A stretch of 32,000 nt of DNA, from contig CP025011.1 in the NCBI GenBank assembly GCA_002952755.1, forward strand, positions 120,001 through 152,000. Reading direction: 5' to 3'. Position 1 is the stretch's first letter, and each line of letters starts with the position of its first letter. Under the pieces are notes generated by a model. The model made no database searches and was not told the DNA's origin. It was given only the letters and a program-made list of their open reading frames with translations. Made by a program: the position numbers and the translations under genes. The DNA comes from Candidatus Saccharimonadota bacterium (GTDB taxonomy: Bacteria; Patescibacteriota; Saccharimonadia; Saccharimonadales; UBA4665). Of the stretch, positions 3,991 to 30,374 are shown one piece after another.

Positions 3991-4052
3991 AGATATACTG
4001 TACAGCAAGTAGCCAGGCGTGTGCTTTTTACCAGCGCGGATATGGCAAAACG

Positions 4053-4225: not shown

Positions 4226-5740
4226 ATGGACCCAATCACCATAGTGCTCGCTGTGGCGGGCCTTGCCGTTGGCTTTGGCGCCAACACCGTTATTACGAAG
4301 CAGCGCGTCGGTTCAGCACAAGAACAAGCCGATAAAGAATTGAGTAAGGCCAAGCGCGAAGCCTCCAAGCTGGTAGAAACCGCCCGTGAGGAAGCCGGCA
4401 AATTAACCGACGAAAATCGCAAAGAAGAGCAAGCTCGACGCCGCGAACTCAAAGACCTTGAGCAGCGTTTAGTGTCCCGCGAAGAAACACTCGATAAAAA
4501 GCTAGACGAGCTCGACAAGCGCACCGAAAGACTGCGCGCGTCCGAAAGCGAAGTAGAGGGCCTAAAGGATGAAATCCGCGAAATCCGTAAAAAACAGCAA
4601 GATAAGCTCGAAAAAGTTGCTGGTCTTACGAAGGAAGATGCCGCCAGCAAGCTGATGCAAATGACCGAACGCGACATCAAGCACGACCTCACCGGCATGA
4701 TTGCCAAAATGCAGAACGAAGCCAAAGACAATGCCGAGGAGCAGGCTGGTCTGATTATCGTCACTGCCATGGAGCGTATGGCCAGCGAGGTGACCGCAGA
4801 GCGTACCGTTACCAGTGTCAAGCTTGAAGACGAAGAGATGAAGGGGCGCATCATCGGCAAAGAAGGCCGCAATATTCAGGCCCTGCAGCGCGCAACCGGC
4901 GTCGACATTATGGTCGACGACACCCCTGGCTACATCGTACTGAGCAGCTTCGATCCAGTTCGCCGTGAGACTGCCCGTCAGGCCCTTGAGATGCTCATGA
5001 AAGATGGCCGCATCCACCCCGGCCGCATCGAAGAAGTCGTCGAAAAAGCACAGAAAAATGTCGAGAAAGACATCGTGAGAGCCGGCGAAGATGCTGCCCG
5101 CGAGGTCGGCGTCATTGGCATTCCGAAGGAGATTTTGCATCTGCTTGGTGAGTTACGCTATCGCACCAGCTACGGCCAGAATGTGCTCAAGCACTCCACC
5201 GAAATGGCTCACATGGCTGGCATTATTGCCGAAGAGGTCGGTGCCAATGTGAAGGTCGCTAAATATGCCGCGCTGGTACATGATCTTGGCAAGGCACTGA
5301 CACACAAGATGGAGGGCAAGCATCATCATATCAGCGGCGAAATCCTGCGCAAATACGGCGCCCCGGAGGCGGTAGCGCTAGCGGCCGAACAGCACCACGA
5401 CGATGTCGAAGCTACCAGCACCGAGGCCTTGATCATACGGGTAGTAGATGCTATTTCTGCTTCGCGACCAGGTGCCCGCAATATCAGCGCCGAAAACTTT
5501 GTGGAACGCATGAAAGAGCTGGAGAACGTGGCTAACAGTTTCAACGGTATCGAGAAATCGTACGCCATTAGCGCTGGACGCGAAGTGCGTATCTTTGTAA
5601 AACCGCAAGCTATTGACGACTTGGCGGCTATCAAACTGGCCCGTGACATTGCCACCAAGATCGAGTCAACCATGCAATATCCTGGTACGATCAAGGTGAA
5701 TGTTATCCGCGAGACGCGCGCTATCGAATTTGCTAAATAG
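4226..5740 (+). CDS. rny: Ribonuclease Y
   Basis: It has an N-terminal TM helix, a long charged coiled-coil region, a KH domain (GRIIGKEGRNIQALQRATGVDIMVDD) and an HD domain (HSTEMAHMAGIIAEE..LVHDLGKA). The SD is GAAAGGA. Confidence 0.95.
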   Translation: MDPITIVLAVAGLAVGFGANTVITKQRVGSAQEQADKELSKAKREASKLVETAREEAGKLTDENRKEEQARRRELKDLEQRLVSREETLDKKLDELDKRTERLRASESEVEGLKDEIREIRKKQQDKLEKVAGLTKEDAASKLMQMTERDIKHDLTGMIAKMQNEAKDNAEEQAGLIIVTAMERMASEVTAERTVTSVKLEDEEMKGRIIGKEGRNIQALQRATGVDIMVDDTPGYIVLSSFDPVRRETARQALEMLMKDGRIHPGRIEEVVEKAQKNVEKDIVRAGEDAAREVGVIGIPKEILHLLGELRYRTSYGQNVLKHSTEMAHMAGIIAEEVGANVKVAKYAALVHDLGKALTHKMEGKHHHISGEILRKYGAPEAVALAAEQHHDDVEATSTEALIIRVVDAISASRPGARNISAENFVERMKELENVANSFNGIEKSYAISAGREVRIFVKPQAIDDLAAIKLARDIATKIESTMQYPGTIKVNVIRETRAIEFAK

Positions 5741-5816: not shown

Positions 5817-6485
5817 ATGAAAAATGTCTTTTTATTTGGAGCGAGTACCACGCACGGGGTCGGTGGACCGCGCGGCGGCTGGGCCGATAAACTCAAGGCC
5901 GGATTGCACCGCGATTTGTATGGCGAGGACGCTGCAGGCGAATGTTGTGAAGTGTATGAATTAGGCGTCCCCGGTACGAACTCGGCAGATTTGCTTGAGC
6001 GATTTGAGTCTGAGATCCATGCCCGTTTGATCGGTCAGACCAGCCCAGAAGATACAATTATCGTTATGCAAATTGGCATGAACGACTCTAAGGCGGTGGG
6101 CACTCCTGATGGATTCGTAACCACGCCCGAAGCATTCAGCCAAACGGCGAACTATTTGTTTGATATCGCCAAGAAATGCAGCACTCACGTTGTGGCACTT
6201 GGCCTCACGCCAGTTGACGAACGAAAGGTGACACCCAAGATTAATCCATTAACCGGGAATAAGTCGTACTTCTCGAACGACCGCATCGAGGCTTTTGATG
6301 TAGCAGTGCAAGAGGTGTGTCTGGCCTCCGGGGCGACATTTGTCCCATTATTCGCGGCCGTGCCGGATACCTGGGCGGATCGGTATTTATTTACCGATGG
6401 CATTCACCCCAGCGACCAAGGGCACGAGTGGATTCGTTCCCAAGTCGAACCCGAAGTCCGCAAGGCCTTAGGGCCGCTCGCTTGA
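5817..6485 (+). CDS. SGNH/GDSL-family hydrolase
   Basis: Block I is VFLFGASTTHG, block III is GMNDS and block V is DGIHPSDQGH. An AGGGGAG SD lies upstream. Confidence 0.8.
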   Translation: MKNVFLFGASTTHGVGGPRGGWADKLKAGLHRDLYGEDAAGECCEVYELGVPGTNSADLLERFESEIHARLIGQTSPEDTIIVMQIGMNDSKAVGTPDGFVTTPEAFSQTANYLFDIAKKCSTHVVALGLTPVDERKVTPKINPLTGNKSYFSNDRIEAFDVAVQEVCLASGATFVPLFAAVPDTWADRYLFTDGIHPSDQGHEWIRSQVEPEVRKALGPLA

Positions 6486-8220: not shown

Positions 8221-8296
8221 CGGGGTGTGGCGCAGTTGGTAGCGCGCCTGGTTTGGGACCAGGAGGTCGAAGGTTCGAGTCCTTTCACCCCGACCA
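8221..8296 (+). tRNA. tRNA-Pro (anticodon TGG), CCA encoded
   Basis: Manual cloverleaf: acceptor CGGGGTG/CACCCCG, anticodon arm CCTGG-TTTGGGA-CCAGG, T arm GAAGG-TTCGAGT-CCTTT. Confidence 0.93.
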
Positions 8297-8383: not shown

Positions 8384-8459
8384 CGGGGTGTGGCGCAGTT
8401 GGTAGCGCGCAGCGTTCGGGACGCTGAGGTCGAAGGTTCGAGTCCTTTCACCCCGACCA
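8384..8459 (+). tRNA. tRNA-Pro (anticodon CGG), CCA encoded
   Basis: The sequence is identical to the first tRNA-Pro except for the anticodon arm, CAGCG-TTCGGGA-CGCTG. Confidence 0.93.
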
Positions 8460-9922: not shown

Positions 9923-10300
9923 ATGATGATTCTCGCGATGCTGTCGTGGTGGTATACCACGGGCTGGGCGCGTGTAGCGAAACGTGTTGGAATGCGGATT
10001 ACGGCGACACTCGAAACTTTTTCCGTAGGATTGCTCCTCGGTACACTATTTTCACCATTTCGCCAGATTAGTGCTGGAGCAGGGCGGGGCGGCTCGCTGG
10101 ATGTGCAGTTGAGAGCGTTTGGCGACCGACTCTTCTCGAGGGTCTTTGGCGCCCTTGTGCGTTCGCTGTTTGTACTTATCGGTTGTGTTGCCTCGCTGGT
10201 GGTTGCACTCTTCGGCTCGGTACTGCTGGTTGCTTGGCCGCTGATGCCCCTTACCCCTGTTATTGGTATTGGGTTGGCTGTAGCAGGGGTGCGCTTGTGA
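9923..10300 (+). CDS. Small membrane protein (125 aa, ~3 TM)
   Basis: It has hydrophobic segments and TATACT-N7-ATG upstream. Its TGA overlaps the GTG of the next gene (GTGA). Confidence 0.6.
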   Translation: MMILAMLSWWYTTGWARVAKRVGMRITATLETFSVGLLLGTLFSPFRQISAGAGRGGSLDVQLRAFGDRLFSRVFGALVRSLFVLIGCVASLVVALFGSVLLVAWPLMPLTPVIGIGLAVAGVRL

Positions 10301-12711
10301 ATAATCAGCCTTTTTATAACTACCGGAGCAAGCGTTCACAGCAGGCTCGTATCGCGCAGCGTCTTGGGCGAAGCCAGGTGTATCAGCTGCTTATCGCAAC
10401 TGGTCTGATACTCGCTGCAGCACCGGTAGCACTGATAATCCTGTGGCACATGCCGCTATTGTGGATCGTTGCCGGTTTTGTCGGGCCACTGTGGGTGGCG
10501 GCGGCTTGGAGTCACAGTCTACGCGAATTGCCGCCGAATCCAACTGTCCAGACAATTGACGATATGCTTGCGGTGGAGATACTCGGCGTTCTGCCGGAGA
10601 ACCACACGCCGCATCAGCTAGCCCAGATTGTGATGAATAGTGGCGGTGGCAGGTTCTTTGCGGCACGATTTGGCTTGGGCCCAGATTTCCTTAGCTCGCT
10701 TGTGAGCAACCAGCCGGGAGATAGTGTCCGGGTATGGAATGAGGCAAGCGCTCTCAGTAGCCAGTTGCACGTATCGACAATTGATGCGTCTATTCTGACT
10801 GCTGCCTTAATTCGCACCATCCCTGGTGTTGACCAGTATCTGGCCCAAGGGCGACTTGGCGCAGACGATATTGTTGCCGGTGCTGAGTGGTATAAGCATT
10901 TACAGGAAGTCATTGCCGCCTCCAAAAAACGAGGTCACGACGGCGGTATTGGCCGCGATTGGGCCTTTGGCTTCACGCCCATCCTGGAGCGATTCGGTTA
11001 TAACATCAGTATGCATATCCATACCAAAGGCGTGCTGCAGTATGATTTGCCGAGTCGCAGTGCGCTTGCTCAGCAAATGACCCATCTATTGGCACAGGGT
11101 GGCCGGCGGAATGTGGCGCTGGTTGGGGGCTTAGGAAGTGGCAAGACGTCGGTGGTACATGCGCTGGCAAAAAAACTACTCGAGGCCAACCCGAGTATTC
11201 CACGCGAGCTGCACTATCATCAGATTGTCGCGCTCGACCCTTCCACGCTTATTGCTCAGTCGCCTGGACGGGGCGAGTTGGAGTCGCTGGTGCAGCGCCT
11301 TTGCTATGAGGCGCTGCAAGCCAAGAATATTATTTTGTTCTTGGACGATGCCCAGTTATTTTTTGAAGATGGTAACGGCGCAGTAAACCTGAGCAATGTA
11401 CTGCTGCCGATCCTTGAGGGCGGCGCGCTGCGTATCATTTTAGCCATGGATGAACAGCGTTGGCTACGCATTGCCCAGGGAAATGCGGCACTCACGCAGT
11501 ACATGAACCGGTTAGTAGTGCCGCCTACCGACGAACACGAAACGATGCTCATTCTGGAAGATCAATTGCTGTTATTTGAGTACCATCAAAAAGTTACTTA
11601 CACCTACCAGGCGGTCGAAGCGGTGTATGGCTTAAGTAGCCGCTATTTGAGTGAGCAAGTGATGCCCGGTCGTGCTCTCAAGTTGCTCGAAAGTGCAGCC
11701 AACTGCTCAGAGCAGGGGCTAGTCACCCACCGATCGGTCGAGCAGGCCATTGAACAAACCCAAGGAGTTAAAGTAGGCACTGCTGATAGTGCCAGTGAGC
11801 GCCAGACATTGCTCAATCTGGAAGAATTGATCCATAAGCGTATGATCAATCAAACGCGCGCCGTGCAAGTAGTGAGTGATGCGCTGCGCCGGGCCCGGGC
11901 TGGTGTGCGCGAATCGGCGCGGCCCATTGGCACTTTTTTGTTCCTTGGCCCTACTGGTGTTGGTAAAACGGAGCTGGCTAAAAGTGTGGCAGCGGTGTTC
12001 TTTGGCGGCGAAGAGCATTTGGTACGGCTCGATCTCAATGAATATTCCACTCCCGGCGACGTTTCAAGGCTCATTGCTGACGCTGCTCAAGACCAAAACA
12101 GCCTTACTGCGCAGATCAGTCGCAACCCCTTCAGTGTGGTGTTGCTCGACGAGATCGAGAAGGCCCATCCGGCAGTGCTCAATACTTTGCTGCAGCTGCT
12201 TGACGAGGGCATCTTGCGTGATATTAACAATCGTACGGTGTCATTCCGTGACGCCGTTATCGTCGCTACGAGCAATGCCGGGGCAGATCGCATTCGCGCT
12301 CATATCGAGGCCGGTCAGGAACTTGACCAGTTTGAGGAGCAGTTTACTAATGAGCTGATTAACGCCAACGTCTTCCGGCCCGAATTTTTGAACCGTTTTG
12401 ACGAGATCGTATTGTTCCGTCCCCTTAAGCCCGAAGAATTATTGCAAGTCGTCGATCTTATTCTGCAGGGCCTCAACAAAAATTTGGCTGCTCAAAAAGT
12501 TACCGTTGCGGTTGATCAAGATGCCAGACAGCTGTTGGTGCAAGCTGGCTTCGATCCGCGTCTTGGTGCGAGGCCGATGCGCCGCATGGTACAGCGGGTG
12601 GTAGAAAACATCGTGTCCAATCAGTTGCTGAGCGGCCAGGTAGGTCCTGGCGGGCAAGTCCATATAACCGCTGGCGACGTACAGATTATGCTGCAGCGGG
12701 GCAGGCAATGA
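10297..12711 (+). CDS. Clp/Hsp100-family double AAA+ ATPase with an N-terminal two-TM anchor
   Basis: D1 Walker A is GGLGSGKTS. D2 Walker A is GPTGVGKTELAK and D2 Walker B is VVLLDEIEKAHP, followed by TSNAG and RPEFLNRFDEIV motifs. A Clp-N-like repeat is present (ILTAALIRTIPGVDQYLA). Two hydrophobic helices lie at about aa 28-70. The start is taken as the GTG at 10297 because the track start at 10183 would overlap the upstream gene by 118 nt. Confidence 0.8.
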   Translation: MNNQPFYNYRSKRSQQARIAQRLGRSQVYQLLIATGLILAAAPVALIILWHMPLLWIVAGFVGPLWVAAAWSHSLRELPPNPTVQTIDDMLAVEILGVLPENHTPHQLAQIVMNSGGGRFFAARFGLGPDFLSSLVSNQPGDSVRVWNEASALSSQLHVSTIDASILTAALIRTIPGVDQYLAQGRLGADDIVAGAEWYKHLQEVIAASKKRGHDGGIGRDWAFGFTPILERFGYNISMHIHTKGVLQYDLPSRSALAQQMTHLLAQGGRRNVALVGGLGSGKTSVVHALAKKLLEANPSIPRELHYHQIVALDPSTLIAQSPGRGELESLVQRLCYEALQAKNIILFLDDAQLFFEDGNGAVNLSNVLLPILEGGALRIILAMDEQRWLRIAQGNAALTQYMNRLVVPPTDEHETMLILEDQLLLFEYHQKVTYTYQAVEAVYGLSSRYLSEQVMPGRALKLLESAANCSEQGLVTHRSVEQAIEQTQGVKVGTADSASERQTLLNLEELIHKRMINQTRAVQVVSDALRRARAGVRESARPIGTFLFLGPTGVGKTELAKSVAAVFFGGEEHLVRLDLNEYSTPGDVSRLIADAAQDQNSLTAQISRNPFSVVLLDEIEKAHPAVLNTLLQLLDEGILRDINNRTVSFRDAVIVATSNAGADRIRAHIEAGQELDQFEEQFTNELINANVFRPEFLNRFDEIVLFRPLKPEELLQVVDLILQGLNKNLAAQKVTVAVDQDARQLLVQAGFDPRLGARPMRRMVQRVVENIVSNQLLSGQVGPGGQVHITAGDVQIMLQRGRQ

Positions 12712-17436: not shown

Positions 17437-17514
17437 TGGGGCGAGCTATGGGTCTCGAACCCACGACCTTCGGAGCCACAACCCGACGCTCTAACCAACT
17501 GAGCTAAGCTCGCC
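17437..17514 (-). tRNA. tRNA-His (anticodon GTG) with encoded G-1 and CCA
   Basis: The reverse complement is G-GCGAGCT-TA-GCTC-AGTTGGTTA-GAGC-G-TCGGG-TTGTGGC-TCCGA-AGGTC-GTGGG-TTCGAGA-CCCAT-AGCTCGC-C-CCA. G-1 sits opposite C73, which is the His identity signature. Confidence 0.9.
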
Positions 17515-17567: not shown

Positions 17568-17676
17568 TGAGGCCAGTATCCACTCGCTCCAAATAGAGCG
17601 TTACATGCAGGCTGACTTACGTCGGTCTGGCTGCACTACGCCTGACTCTATTTGGAGCGAGTGGATACTGGCCTCA
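17568..17676 (-). repeat. Hairpin element copy A: perfect 31-bp inverted arms (17568-17598 / 17646-17676) around a 47-nt core
   Basis: The arms TGAGGCCAGTATCCACTCGCTCCAAATAGAG and CTCTATTTGGAGCGAGTGGATACTGGCCTCA are exact reverse complements. The reverse complement of the core matches the copy-B core at about 41 of 48 positions. Confidence 0.85.
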
Positions 17677-17703
17677 GCTTCAGATACTGTATACTAAAAG
17701 CCT

Positions 17704-18144
17704 ATGGGCATAGCAGCACGAGCAATTATTATTGAAGGCAACAAAATCCTGGTGATGAAGCGTGTCAAGTACGGCAGTGAGTACTTTACGCTCGTTGGCG
17801 GCCGCTTGAATGAGGGCGAGAACCTCGAGCAAGCCCTGGTTCGCGAAGTGATGGAAGAGACGGGCCTACAGGTTACTGCCGCCCAACTGGTGTATGTCGA
17901 AGAACACGCCGCACCATATAATCACCAGTATATCTTCTTGTGTAACGTCGCACCGCATCAGGGTGTAGCTCTGCAAGAATATTCTGAAGAAAATATGATG
18001 AACAAGCTCGACGCCAACGTGCATGAGCCCTTGTGGGCTGAGGTGAAAGCATTCGAGAATCTGCCTTTTCGTACGCCCCAACTCCACCAAGCAATCCTCG
18101 AAGCCTTTAAAAAGGGCTTCCCGCGCGAACCGGTTAAGCTGTAG
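17704..18144 (+). CDS. Nudix hydrolase
   Basis: The Nudix box is GGRLNEGENLEQALVREVMEETGL. TATACT-N8-ATG lies upstream. Confidence 0.85.
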   Translation: MGIAARAIIIEGNKILVMKRVKYGSEYFTLVGGRLNEGENLEQALVREVMEETGLQVTAAQLVYVEEHAAPYNHQYIFLCNVAPHQGVALQEYSEENMMNKLDANVHEPLWAEVKAFENLPFRTPQLHQAILEAFKKGFPREPVKL

Positions 18145-26091: not shown

Positions 26092-28638
26092 TTACAACTG
26101 AGGCTGGATCTCGTTCAGGGCTTGGTTGAGCGTTTCGACGGTGACGCCCGCTTGCTGCATGCTTGCTAATTCGGTATCCAGATGGGCTGGGGTAATTGAG
26201 TAGTCCTCTTGGGCGGCGGAAGGGTCTGCTTCAACGCCGTGATACACCAGCACTAGCCAGGTCTTGTCGTGCTGAGCTTGGGCGACCCACGCGGCTACCT
26301 GAGCGGGTGTGGTGCCATCTAAAATGTTTTGGACGCGGATGTTGTAGAAGTCAAAATCGCCCTTGCTGTTAAAGCCGTCGTCAGTTGAGCGGTGTGAGCG
26401 GAAGTACTTTTTGGCTTCGGTGAGCACGGTGCCATTGTATTCGCCATATGGAGTGGCGAAGTTCGCGCCTACTACACCGTCATTGCCAAACCAAGTCCGT
26501 AACTGTGCTTGGCTGTTGCCCATCTCGGCATCAATTTTGGCAACTGTCAGTGTAGGTAGGTGGGGATGGGTAACAGTATGGTCGGCAATTTCGTTGCCGT
26601 CGTTTTTAAGGGCTTGCATCATGGCCACGGTCATGTACTCGGGGTCCTGACTGGTGCTGCTGATGATGTAGAAGGTGGCCTTCATGCCGTATTTGTCGAG
26701 CAGCGGCAGAGCGTTCGTGTAATGGGTGCGCAGGCCGTCGTCAAAGGTGAGGGTGACCAGGGGGCGGTTGAATTGTGCAGGTGTGTATGGCGCAAGGCTG
26801 AAATCGTCATTTTGTACCCAGCCAACCTTGCTGACAACCTGGTAGAAGGTGATCGTTTTGGCAGTGGCAGGCGCGACAAACTGCGCTTTTACTTGGGTCC
26901 AAGCAGTCGGGCTCGCGGGCGCAGTGCCGACGTAGTAGTAGGATACGGTGCCGTCGGCGGCAGTGACCTGGGCGTCGACTTCGCTGTCAATGTTGGACTC
27001 GTACCAGTTGGTGTATTGATAGTTGGTGCCAGGGGTAACAGGTACTTCATCGAAGTACCACTTGGCATCGCCATTGGTGTAGCTGGTGATGGTAGTTTTG
27101 AGGCTGTGTGTGCCGGTATGCCCGGTGTTCTGGTAGGTGGCGCTATGGGTGTTGGTCCCCCAGCTGCCATCGTGCCAGTTGCTGGGGAGGCTATTGGTGT
27201 TCGTTTCGACCGATGGATTCGGGATGAGATTCGTTGCCGCAGGTGGGGTGACTGGTGAGTTGTTTACGGTGACTACGACAGGGGCTGAGGTGGTAGACAG
27301 GTGCGCGCCATTGGTAGCAATCGCCGTAAGCGTGTGGCTCCCGTTGGAGGCCGTCGTTGTATCCCAGTTTAGGCTATAAGGCTCGCTGGTAAGCGGGCTG
27401 CCGAGGTTAGTTCCGTCAAGCTGGAACTGAACCGAGGAGACAGCGACAGCATCGCTAGCGTGGGCGGTGATAGTCTGCGAAGCGCTCAAGGTGGCATTAT
27501 TTGCGGGGCTGGTAATATTTACGCTTGGTGCTGTCGGGTTGTTCACAGTGACACTCTCGGTGGTTGTGGCAGTTAGATTGGCACTGTTGGTGGCAACGGC
27601 GGTGAGAGTGTGAATGCCATTGGTAGTTTTCGTAGTATCCCAGGCAAATGTGTAGGGCGCAGTTGTTGCCAGCGCGGCATTCGTGCCGTCCAGCTTAAAT
27701 TGGACTGAGGTGATTCCTGTGGCATCGCTGGCGTTGGCTGTAACGGTGGTCAGGCTGTTAACAGTGCTATCTGCTGCTGGTGCCACAAAACTAATTGTAG
27801 GTGTGGTCGGAGGCGACACGTTATTTACATTCACCGTAACGTTGGTTGCAGTCGTGGTCAGATTGGCGGTATTAGTGGCAACGGCGCTGAGGGTATGCGT
27901 GCCATTGGCCACCTTAGTGCTGTCCCAGGCCGTGGCGTAAGGTGCACTTGTAACAGGCGCACCGAGGTTGGCTCCATCCAGTTTAAATTGGACTGAGCTT
28001 AGGCCTTGAGCATCGCTAGCGTTAGCCGCCACATTCACGGCCGAACCGCTCACTGTGGCATTTGCCGTAGGCGAAGTCATGGCTACAGTGGGTGCGGTCG
28101 GCGTGCTGCCTGGACCGGTTAATGAATAATCGTCAGTCGTCAGTGAGCCGTTGGCAAAGATAACATGAAAGAAGGTTAGGCTGGCCGCGTTAGCGGGAGT
28201 AGTGAAGGCGTAGCTGGTCTGCTTCCAAGTGCTGCTGCTGGCCGCATTGCCAACCCAGTAGTAGCTGGTGGTGCCGGTGGTAGTTGTCACGACGGCGTCA
28301 ACTTCGCTGGCGACAGTGCTTTTGTACCAGTCGCTAAAGGTGTAAGCGGTATTGGCGGTAACGGTAACCGGCGAAAAATACCACTTGGCATCGCCACTTG
28401 TGTAATTTGCAAGGGCCACCGTCGCACTACGTGCGCCAGTGTGGCCTGTGGTGGCGTAGGTGAAGGTGGTAGTATTGGTGCCCCAGTTGCCTTTGTTCCA
28501 GCCGGCTGGAGATGCTCCATTGGCGGTTTCAAATGATGGGTTAGCGACTAGATTGGTTGCAGCACGCGCATTGGCCAGTGGCAGTAGGCTGGCAGCAATA
28601 AGAAATAGGCCTGCCAGCAGTGATCTTACTTTTTTCAT
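26092..28638 (-). CDS. Secreted multidomain polysaccharide deacetylase: signal peptide, CBM-like module, 3 Ig-like repeats, second CBM-like module, CE4/NodB domain
   Basis: The signal peptide is MKKVRSLLAGLFLIAASLLPLANA. Two paralogous modules have the pattern NL.(A/P)NPS.ET...GDAKWYF. Three repeats have the pattern SVQF(K/Q)LDG.N...PY...WD.T...NG.HTL.A.ATN. The NodB motifs are TFDDG and HTVTHPH. Confidence 0.88.
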   Translation of the reverse strand: MKKVRSLLAGLFLIAASLLPLANARAATNLVANPSFETANGASPAGWNKGNWGTNTTTFTYATTGHTGARSATVALANYTSGDAKWYFSPVTVTANTAYTFSDWYKSTVASEVDAVVTTTTGTTSYYWVGNAASSSTWKQTSYAFTTPANAASLTFFHVIFANGSLTTDDYSLTGPGSTPTAPTVAMTSPTANATVSGSAVNVAANASDAQGLSSVQFKLDGANLGAPVTSAPYATAWDSTKVANGTHTLSAVATNTANLTTTATNVTVNVNNVSPPTTPTISFVAPAADSTVNSLTTVTANASDATGITSVQFKLDGTNAALATTAPYTFAWDTTKTTNGIHTLTAVATNSANLTATTTESVTVNNPTAPSVNITSPANNATLSASQTITAHASDAVAVSSVQFQLDGTNLGSPLTSEPYSLNWDTTTASNGSHTLTAIATNGAHLSTTSAPVVVTVNNSPVTPPAATNLIPNPSVETNTNSLPSNWHDGSWGTNTHSATYQNTGHTGTHSLKTTITSYTNGDAKWYFDEVPVTPGTNYQYTNWYESNIDSEVDAQVTAADGTVSYYYVGTAPASPTAWTQVKAQFVAPATAKTITFYQVVSKVGWVQNDDFSLAPYTPAQFNRPLVTLTFDDGLRTHYTNALPLLDKYGMKATFYIISSTSQDPEYMTVAMMQALKNDGNEIADHTVTHPHLPTLTVAKIDAEMGNSQAQLRTWFGNDGVVGANFATPYGEYNGTVLTEAKKYFRSHRSTDDGFNSKGDFDFYNIRVQNILDGTTPAQVAAWVAQAQHDKTWLVLVYHGVEADPSAAQEDYSITPAHLDTELASMQQAGVTVETLNQALNEIQPQL
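27259..28101 (-). repeat. Three tandem ~93-codon Ig-like domain repeats inside the deacetylase gene
   Basis: Protein-level repeats at aa ~180-273, 274-367 and 368-460 were read from the translation. Confidence 0.8.
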
Positions 28639-28758: not shown

Positions 28759-28858
28759 CCCCCTGCCACCTATATGCAGCAGAGTCAGGCGTAGTGCAAC
28801 CAGACCGACTTTAGTCGGCCTGCGTGAAAACGCTCTGCTGCATATAGGTGGCAGGGGG
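28759..28858 (+). repeat. Hairpin element copy B: perfect 26-bp inverted arms (28759-28784 / 28833-28858) around a 48-nt core
   Basis: The arms CCCCCTGCCACCTATATGCAGCAGAG and CTCTGCTGCATATAGGTGGCAGGGGG are exact reverse complements. The core is TCAGGCGTAGTGCAACCAGACCGACTTTAGTCGGCCTGCGTGAAAACG. Confidence 0.85.
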
Positions 28859-28910: not shown

Positions 28911-30374
28911 ATGAATAACTTCGTCTTTTTATTGTCCCACTATCCGCTGGGGCATGCCTTTGGAGCGCGCTACGAGTTGCCTATCCCCTTGGTATTGTTC
29001 GTACTTGGAGGCGGTGCTGTCGTGCTGCTATCTTTTTTGCTCGTGGTACGGCAAAAGGTTGCTCCGGCCTCTGCTGCCGAGTATCCTGACACAACACATG
29101 TGCGAGGTATACAGGGTTTTTGGGCTGCTTTGAGCCTTTTGGTTCTTACAGCGTGTATTACTGTGGGTATAGCGGGCAGCCAGGAGGCTGCAGAGAATAT
29201 TGTGCCAACGTTATTTTGGCTGATTATATGGATTGCCGTGCCGCTTTCAGCCGGTATTGTAGGTGACTGGACACAAGTAGTTAACCCTTTTGCCATTGTG
29301 GCAAAACTTACCGATAACAGGGCACTCCGTAAACGTGCGCTTCTTCGGGAAGCATCGCTTGCCTGGCCGGTTCGCGTGGGTTGGTGGCCGGCTGTTGCTG
29401 TTTTTTTCATACTGGCATGCGGCGAACTGATTTATAACCAGACGGTCACACGGCCAGTAGTTATTGGCGCAGGACTCTTGATTTATTTTGTACTGAGTGC
29501 TTTTGCCGGTCTGGTCTATGGCAAACAGTGGCTGGAGTGCGGCGAAGTGTTTACGGTGCTATTTGCAACGTGGGGGCGGCTAGGTTTTTTCCGTTTTGGC
29601 GCTCCGGGACGCCGAGGTTTTGCGGGTGGGTTGCAGGTGCCTTTTGAGGCTAGCGTCAGTCGCGTTACGTTTGTGTTGCTGCTCTTAGTAAGCGTGGGTT
29701 TCGACGGCCTACTTTCTACACCGCTGTGGAGCCGCATGCAGCATCACTTGCCGAACGGTCTGGCAGTGGGGACGACGGCTTATCTATTGCTGGCAACACT
29801 TATTTTTGCAGCCTTGGCATTCGTCTTTTGGGCAGTATTTAGCTTACTGGCCCTGGCAGTAAGCAAAGTGGGCGTACACAAGCTGGGTGCCACACCCGCA
29901 CTGGCGGGATTACTGCCGTCGCTGGTGCCAATCTCCTTTGGCTACTTGCTGGCGCATAATCTGGAATATTTAGTGCTCAATGGTCAGCTTTTATTTCCGC
30001 TTATCGGTAATCCCGTAGGCAAAGAAAGCTGGCCAATCCATCTGCCACACCCCTTCAATGACAGTTTCGAGCCAAACCGGCACCTGCTGCCCAGCTCTTT
30101 TTATTGGTATGCCTCGGTGATTGTTATTGTGATTGTGCACATTGTGGCTGTCGTATTGGCGCATCGTTACCTGGGTAGAGCCACTAAGAATGAAGAGCAA
30201 GCGCGGCGGTCGGAATATCCGTGGATTGTGGCAATGGTGGCCTATACGATGTTCAGCTTATGGCTCCTGGCTCAGCCGTTAGTCAAAGAAAAGGCGGACG
30301 AAACGGGCATCGCGCCAACCCGTCAAACTGTGGCTGTTGCCCAAACTAATGCGGTGATTACAGTAGATTATTAG
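28911..30374 (+). CDS. Large polytopic membrane protein (487 aa, ~12 TM), unknown function
   Basis: Hydrophobic segments run throughout the protein. The track start at 28848 (GTG) lies inside the right arm of hairpin copy B, so the ATG at 28911 (MNNFVFLLSHYPLGH..., with TACTAT 8 nt upstream) is preferred. Confidence 0.7.
   Translation: MNNFVFLLSHYPLGHAFGARYELPIPLVLFVLGGGAVVLLSFLLVVRQKVAPASAAEYPDTTHVRGIQGFWAALSLLVLTACITVGIAGSQEAAENIVPTLFWLIIWIAVPLSAGIVGDWTQVVNPFAIVAKLTDNRALRKRALLREASLAWPVRVGWWPAVAVFFILACGELIYNQTVTRPVVIGAGLLIYFVLSAFAGLVYGKQWLECGEVFTVLFATWGRLGFFRFGAPGRRGFAGGLQVPFEASVSRVTFVLLLLVSVGFDGLLSTPLWSRMQHHLPNGLAVGTTAYLLLATLIFAALAFVFWAVFSLLALAVSKVGVHKLGATPALAGLLPSLVPISFGYLLAHNLEYLVLNGQLLFPLIGNPVGKESWPIHLPHPFNDSFEPNRHLLPSSFYWYASVIVIVIVHIVAVVLAHRYLGRATKNEEQARRSEYPWIVAMVAYTMFSLWLLAQPLVKEKADETGIAPTRQTVAVAQTNAVITVDY

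Follow-up and report, generated by a model that had tools for sequence, protein, structure and literature searches.

We analysed a 32,000-nt stretch of a Saccharimonadales-like genome (the window) and found two hairpins of about 100 bp that share an asymmetric centre of 47 or 48 nt and are closed by flawless arms of 26-31 bp that are unrelated between the two copies. These hairpins represent a genuine and unusual low-copy, lineage-restricted palindromic element, which is unmatched in the libraries searched and whose conservation pattern is opposite to that of MITEs, REPs and attC sites. Our preferred reading, to which we assign a probability of roughly 0.4, is that the element is a dispersed DNA repeat of about 56 bp, young and confined to its lineage, whose stem has been lengthened into unique flanking sequence by fold-back or template-switch synthesis. 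Behind this stand two copies seen in full, a third that is implied by assembly data, and a single empty site in a distant relative, a thin evidence base. The closest relatives of the proteins encoded in the window are MAG proteins labelled Candidatus Saccharimonadales or Patescibacteria, and the nearest of them are just 69-77% identical.

A shared core between unrelated, perfectly paired arms

The first hairpin, copy A, spans positions 17568-17676. Its left arm (31 nt, 17568-17598) is the exact reverse complement of its right arm (31 nt, 17646-17676), and the outer part of the right arm lies over the -35 position of the NUDIX gene promoter. Between the arms, which like those of the second hairpin carry no strand assignment, is a 47-nt core (17599-17645). 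The original prediction of two exact 31-bp arms holds with 100% complementarity. The second hairpin, copy B, spans 28759-28858 and consists of a 26-nt left arm (28759-28784), a 48-nt core on the plus strand (28785-28832) and a 26-nt right arm (28833-28858) that is the exact reverse complement of the left one and is also present in Logan contigs L023 and L024. All arm pairs of the two copies (57/57) are Watson-Crick, with neither a G·U pair nor a mismatch. No other inverted repeat in the window rivals these two, the next best being 16-24 nt long with 71-83% complementarity, and by our own estimate about 1e-9 perfect inverted repeats of at least 26 nt within 200 nt are expected by chance in 32 kb.

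When the core of copy A is read on the minus strand, it is homologous to the plus-strand core of copy B. Pattern matching and alignment of the cores show identity at 41 of 48 positions (85%), compared with 26.2 ± 2.3 and a maximum of 34 in 2000 shuffles. The original prediction had put this match at about 41 of 48 positions in opposite orientation and had named an alignment no better than shuffled controls as one outcome that would speak against it; the opposite was found. A 24-nt core pattern occurs exactly twice in the window (0.00 expected), and blocks of 14 and 10 nt are intact between the two cores. Each core also contains a 9-bp apical helix, placed from the folds and the pair table. In copy A this helix (CAGGCTGAC / GTCGGTCTG, with a TTAC loop; 17608-17629) is assigned to the plus strand, where it has two G·U/U·G pairs that become A·C/C·A mismatches on the minus strand. 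In copy B (28801-28822, 4-nt loop) it is assigned to the minus strand, in whose reading it has one G·U. A single difference between the cores falls within the apical helix (C·G in copy B, U·G in copy A) and the rest fall in loops. Both hairpins are predicted to fold very stably, with RNA folding energies of -69 to -78 kcal/mol (z -10 to -14) and DNA folding energies of -40 to -48 kcal/mol.

The arms behave differently from the cores. Aligned from the junction with the core, they share AGAG/CTCT, and beyond it 7 of 22 positions are equal, a random level that was reached by 53% of shuffles; the claim that the arms have nothing but this junction in common is thus borne out. Because the cores are 85% identical yet the arms agree only at the random level, the arms do not derive from one ancestral element.

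We noted minor resemblances in the arms and cores. Both left arms have the tetramer CCAC in register with each other, at a distance of 16-19 nt from AGAG (17580-17583 and 28766-28769); an in-register run of four is weakly unusual (about 0.05), and we treat it as chance. A 14-nt stretch of the copy A right arm, TATTTGGAGCGAGT (17649-17662, 14 of the 31 arm nucleotides), exactly matches window positions 5833-5846, which are codons 6-10 of a GDSL-lipase gene (ATG at 5817). By our own estimate, the probability of any such 14-nt arm match in the window is about 0.007. We considered the arms as guides or antisense sequences and rejected this idea, as the GDSL-lipase 14-mer, the sole match longer than 11 nt, is probably due to chance. 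Inspection of the core by eye for ribozyme motifs (hammerhead, twister, hatchet), C/D box, k-turn and loop E revealed none that was consistent in both copies.

Distribution and genomic context of the element

Searches of sequence collections returned no known family; a match to a described repeat or RNA family was another outcome that the original prediction had held to be damaging. With Rfam 15 at gathering thresholds, no family was found at the hairpins, and the only passes in the window were five tRNAs. In E-value mode, copy B matched generic long-hairpin miRNA models only (best score 34 against a 140-bit threshold) and copy A gave one chance-level lncRNA match (9.5 against 37 bits, E = 6.3). 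Exact scans with 18-23 specified core bases covered viral contigs for both the left and the right core, and species genomes and JGI metagenomes for the left core. The viral contigs contained no true match. The left core gave 16 matches among 185,579 species (one genome each), all coding or chance matches with no adjacent core or hairpin and about as many as chance predicts, and one chance match in the JGI metagenome contigs. The complete copy B hairpin, used as a blastn query, had no match in the phage and plasmid collections, and literature searches found no described equivalent of the element.

We also built a covariance model, R1, from the two copies (33 pairs), as the original prediction had proposed. 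Run over the window, its flanks and about 57 kb from five relatives, it recovered both copies and a truncated copy-B fragment at the start of L023, and no diverged copy in any of these sequences. The element is either restricted to its lineage or too fast-evolving for the probes used. We favour restriction, since the two copies keep the 14- and 10-nt blocks intact; in a young or restricted family, the divergence of the arms would not reflect slow covariation.

For copy B, an empty site is available. In P0002 (69% amino acid identity; Logan contig L026), the closest relative found for the 487-aa gene beside copy B, the upstream intergenic region keeps both ends of the copy-B region (AGTCAA.T.TATTTTATAT... 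and GGTTAYTATA..TATATATG). This orthologous region has no hairpin and is about 81 nt shorter than the copy-B region, a shortfall nearer to the core plus one arm (74 nt) than to the entire hairpin (100 nt). Retaining the right arm in the alignment gives a slight gain that 47 of 500 shuffled arms match or exceed, and retaining the left arm gives none, with an outgroup as distant as 69% amino acid identity. The comparison of orthologous regions suggested in the original prediction therefore reveals the absence of the hairpin and gives no clear preference for either arm as ancestral flank. At copy A, the three closest NUDIX relatives do not share the tRNA-His/NUDIX arrangement and so offer no empty site to compare. 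Separately, contig L029, from a relative with 77% identity, carries two short-spacer palindromes around a small gene, one at 10238-10276 (16-nt perfect arms, 7-nt loop) and one at 10454-10497 (21-nt arms at 95%, 2-nt loop), both unrelated in sequence to the element.

Gene positions confirm that both copies lie between divergently transcribed genes. Copy A is flanked by tRNA-His (17437-17513, minus strand) and the NUDIX gene (ATG at 17704, plus strand), and copy B by an 848-aa Big_7/polysaccharide-deacetylase gene (ATG at 28638, minus strand) and the 487-aa membrane-protein gene (ATG at 28911, 28911-30374, plus strand). The distance to the downstream same-sense gene is similar in the two copies (52-54 nt). 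Of the 52-53 nt given originally, the value of 52 nt stands for copy B and we obtain 54 nt for copy A, or 53 nt when, as had been done, the 5' end of tRNA-His is placed at its genome-encoded G-1 (17514). Among the called genes of about 50 kb (the window and its flanks), there is no transposase, recombinase, reverse transcriptase or HUH nuclease.

The motif TATACT(GT) recurs 7-8 nt 5' of ATG codons, both in the window and at a relative's NUDIX gene, and looks like the -10 element of leaderless promoters; the putative -10 of the NUDIX promoter is the TATACT at 17690-17695. If these motifs are leaderless promoters, each hairpin apparently sits in the gap between two divergent core promoters, and on the A(+)/B(-) strand neither hairpin would be within the mRNA of its neighbour. 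Near-symmetric -10 motifs occur on the other strand, TACAGT at copy A and TATAAT at copy B, and we conjecture that they could fire toward the hairpins in the direction that the original prediction called core-sense. A promoter scan of both loci found no convincing promoter belonging to the hairpins themselves, its sole consensus match lying within the beginning of the NUDIX gene, downstream of copy A. A terminator scan found none at either locus, and the flanks have no adjacent T runs.

The near-palindromic sequence ATACTGT/ACAGTAT recurs in the window at 3995, 8346, 15013, 17684 and 28675, and in L030 at 5621-5626. It includes TATACT 7-8 nt before ATG codons or about 30 nt before a tRNA, and in this organism resembles the -10 of promoters that are leaderless and may work in both directions. 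No Pfam domain is present in the 487-aa polytopic membrane protein (28911-30374). Its homologues, 55-63% identical, are found in Saccharimonadales/Patescibacteria MAGs and in Actinomycetota (Frankiales, Pseudonocardiales and an Acidothermaceae isolate), a spread that could stem from exchange between the lineages of episymbionts and their hosts, or from mis-binning of MAGs.

Origin of the arms

In the reading that we prefer, the inherited unit would be AGAG, the asymmetric 47-48-nt core with its own 9-bp hairpin, and CTCT, and the long arms would not be co-inherited with it. The 4-bp closing stem and the internal 9-bp hairpin would bring the flanks together and so provide a plausible seed for a switch. 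At each locus, fold-back DNA synthesis (intrastrand template switching) could then lengthen the short native stem outward, whether at insertion, in repair or through a later replication error. If 22-27 nt of unique flank were copied, inverted, to the other side of the core, one event would suffice to give a flawless palindrome specific to that locus. The element would act as a selfish or structural DNA repeat rather than an RNA gene, tolerated in what is presumably an untranscribed gap between divergent promoters. Inverted-copy events are reportedly the subject of the Ripley/Lovett models of quasipalindrome correction.

Several observations argue for such copying. The absence of G·U pairs counts in its favour because selection at the RNA level would tolerate wobble, whereas copying makes none. 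We retain local copying of one flank because homologous centres, unrelated arms and flawless pairing together weigh against other origins. The original prediction had offered two inferences, a structured RNA or cruciform and a small core whose insertion creates an inverted duplication of flanking DNA. The second fits better, owing to the 57 Watson-Crick pairs in 57, the random similarity of the arms despite the 85% identity of the cores, and the absence of the element from relatives and collections; the RNA form of the first is weakened, and neither is proven. Template switching is described as making perfectly paired whole hairpins in one event of replication or repair that copies nearby sequence inverted over tens of bp (PMC10710096), and fold-back priming at breaks is likewise documented as making inverted duplications (PMC10622511). 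The described template-switch events are sporadic and have no recurrent conserved loop, whereas here the same centre of about 56 bp occurs at two, and probably at least three, loci.

A further step, which we consider doubtful, is that the ~56-bp core is itself mobile or recurrent and that its integration, or the ensuing repair, makes an inverted copy of 22-27 nt of adjacent target, leaving an inverted target duplication as its footprint. To our knowledge, no described prokaryotic element family leaves an inverted rather than a direct target duplication. Against the fold-back reading as a whole, we count that there are two complete copies and a third that is implied by graph behaviour, that no agent of mobility is found in the window or flanks, and that the reading does not account for the like spacing of 52-54 nt. 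In addition, the wobble-compatible helix substitution and the confinement of the other changes to loops hint at a structural constraint that a purely selfish footprint would not need.

If the arms are truly made from local flank around a recurrent core, the element would be a natural sequence that seeds fold-back or template-switch synthesis, which has been proposed as a one-step route to perfect hairpins and thus to raw material for regulatory RNAs, cruciforms and fragile sites. It would also define a class of repeats whose conservation is the reverse of that in MITEs, REPs and attC sites. If the element is an ordinary low-copy repeat or sRNA instead, its impact would be local to the lineage.

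Among the alternatives, a structured non-coding RNA survives best, although we regard it as unlikely. The long perfect duplex would then serve only as a stalk, such as a stem processed by RNase III, from which a conserved apical module of about 48 nt is presented or released. The stable fold and the conserved core agree with this, as do the lone helix substitution, which is wobble-compatible on the A(+)/B(-) strand, and the symmetric -10-like motifs (TACAGT, TATAAT) that could fire toward the hairpins in the other orientation. These two strand signals conflict, since the strand favoured by wobble differs from the one that a plausible upstream -10 would transcribe; the only informative apical-helix substitution thus points to the strand opposite to core-sense, which weakens the RNA reading. 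On the strand favoured by wobble, the putative TATACT promoters lie between hairpin and gene, placing the hairpin outside those mRNAs. The RNA reading is weakened further by the position of the hairpins between two divergent core promoters and by the lack of an evident promoter or terminator, as well as of any Rfam match. Long-term selection on pairing would also be expected to show G·U pairs and occasional mismatches, of which the arms have none, and would need an old, widespread family, and none was found; a functional RNA would not usually be missing from every relative and collection searched. The RNase III processing stalks of rRNAs and sRNAs are similar in that a long duplex of free sequence surrounds a conserved RNA, but they have G·U pairs, bulges, clear promoters and conservation among relatives, none of which is seen here. 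Neither locus has the GC-rich stem followed by a U/T run of an intrinsic terminator, and the flanking genes are divergent.

A functional DNA element appears somewhat less probable still. Here a cruciform or protein site would sense or absorb negative supercoiling between divergent promoters, or insulate them, and only arm pairing and core sequence would matter. Both copies lie between divergent genes, 8-90 nt from the inferred promoter elements, and a structure formed by both DNA strands needs strict Watson-Crick symmetry, which is what the arms show. The core is quasi-palindromic, and its 4-nt central loop could nucleate extrusion, but the asymmetric 16 x 10-nt internal loop would make extrusion costly. 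Moreover, there are two cases only, the element is not conserved at the orthologous site of the relative, and no candidate binding protein was identified.

An ordinary non-autonomous transposon (MITE or foldback element) seems about as improbable as a functional DNA element. The arms would be its own terminal inverted repeats, with copies A and B belonging to different subfamilies, or the core would have entered pre-existing palindromes. Like such elements, the hairpins are small, non-coding, intergenic, multi-copy, palindromic and patchy across relatives, that is, lineage-restricted. MITEs, however, combine a freer interior with terminal inverted repeats that are conserved and with direct duplications of the target site, whereas here the interior is conserved and the arms are locus-specific (7/22 positions equal outside AGAG). 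Unrelated terminal repeats would have to surround an 85% identical interior, while the ends of an ordinary transposon are as alike as its interior. Copy B has no target-site duplication (flanks ...CAGGCAC and CCCTTCG...), and the flanks of copy A contain a weak possible direct repeat (GCTGTTAG / GCTTCAG). No transposase is nearby, and pre-existing perfect palindromes of 52-62 bp are implausible; none occurs elsewhere in the approximately 50 kb.

Two other families of hairpin-forming DNA differ from the element in a similar way. REP/BIME sequences (GTAG- or CGTC-tagged; PMC3733652) are also extragenic palindromes, and the core here happens to contain GTAG. But REPs are imperfect palindromes of 20-40 bp with a stem conserved genome-wide and a high copy number, in contrast to the perfect, unique 26-31-bp arms and the low density of two copies in about 50 kb, where the called genes include no RAYT-like Y1/HUH transposase. 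Integron attC sites likewise form DNA hairpins in which pairing outweighs sequence over part of the site. Yet they have conserved ends (R/L boxes), a variable centre and imperfect pairing with extrahelical bases, and lie in cassette arrays beside an integrase; the element is the opposite throughout, with variable ends, a conserved centre, bulge-free arms and neither integrase nor cassette array.

We consider it very improbable that the hairpins are mini-invertons, in which recombination between the arms flips the core and switches something between two divergent genes. Inverted repeats do surround an asymmetric stretch that separates divergent genes, and copies A and B have opposite orientations with respect to the plus strand. 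Were copy B present in both orientations, however, k=31 contigs would break at about 28829-28833, and two runs read through to 28807 in a single orientation. There is also no recombinase gene nearby, an invertible segment of 47 bp would be very short, and the core contains no conserved promoter.

Independent assemblies and evidence for a further copy

Using exact-protein look-up, we retrieved Logan assemblies of SRR34954208, SRR34954209 and SRR34954210 and of the unrelated run SRR9952756. The contigs of these four SRA runs (two accession series) are identical to the window wherever they overlap it. At copy A, L020 and L021 end at 17597, and L018 and L019 begin at 17647. A de Bruijn graph with k=31, built from about 50 kb (the window with 9.6 kb to its left and 8.4 kb to its right), predicts breaks exactly at 17597/17647 and at the duplicated tRNA-Pro genes, as in the real contigs; the copy A breaks arise because such a graph must break on a 31-bp inverted repeat. 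The hairpins are genuine and not an assembly artefact. An origin of the hairpins in assembly or library preparation, for instance from a hairpin adapter or a fold-back chimera, is the least probable alternative of all: the copy A arm length equals a common k-mer size (31), but the arms and some of the core are present in independent assemblies of four runs from two accession series, the cores differ at 7 positions and so are not a synthetic adapter, and the sequence runs on into different genes on each side.

At copy B, the k=31 graph predicts no break, since the 26-nt arms are shorter than k. However, L023 and L024, contigs of two unrelated runs, each begin within the copy B core at 28807. 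The k-mer just left of this start (28806-28836) is made up of CTCT and the 27 core nucleotides before it, and arm-specific sequence follows from the very next base. The contig starts therefore point to another sequence in the sample that has the core and CTCT and differs right beside them, and the simplest source implied by this graph behaviour is a further copy with a B-type core and junction and a different arm. This graph-based reasoning is the sole evidence for more than two copies. The further copies foreseen in the original prediction are thus implied by the assembly graph (at least one), whereas neither pattern matching nor the covariance model found a third copy in the approximately 50 kb covered (the window, 9.6 kb to its left and 8.4 kb to its right). 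In short-read assemblies of small Patescibacteria-type genomes, elements of this kind cause breaks whose positions can be predicted.

Other repeats in the window affect assemblies as well. The two tRNA-Pro genes (TGG and CGG anticodons; 8221-8296 and 8384-8459) lie 88 nt apart and have common k-mers of at least 31 nt, and the pair breaks short-read assemblies as hairpin A does. L018 ends at 27076, within the Big_7-repeat region of the 848-aa surface protein gene (26092-28638). Since the window-only k=31 graph has no break at this position, a near-identical Big_7 repeat probably exists elsewhere in the genome or sample.
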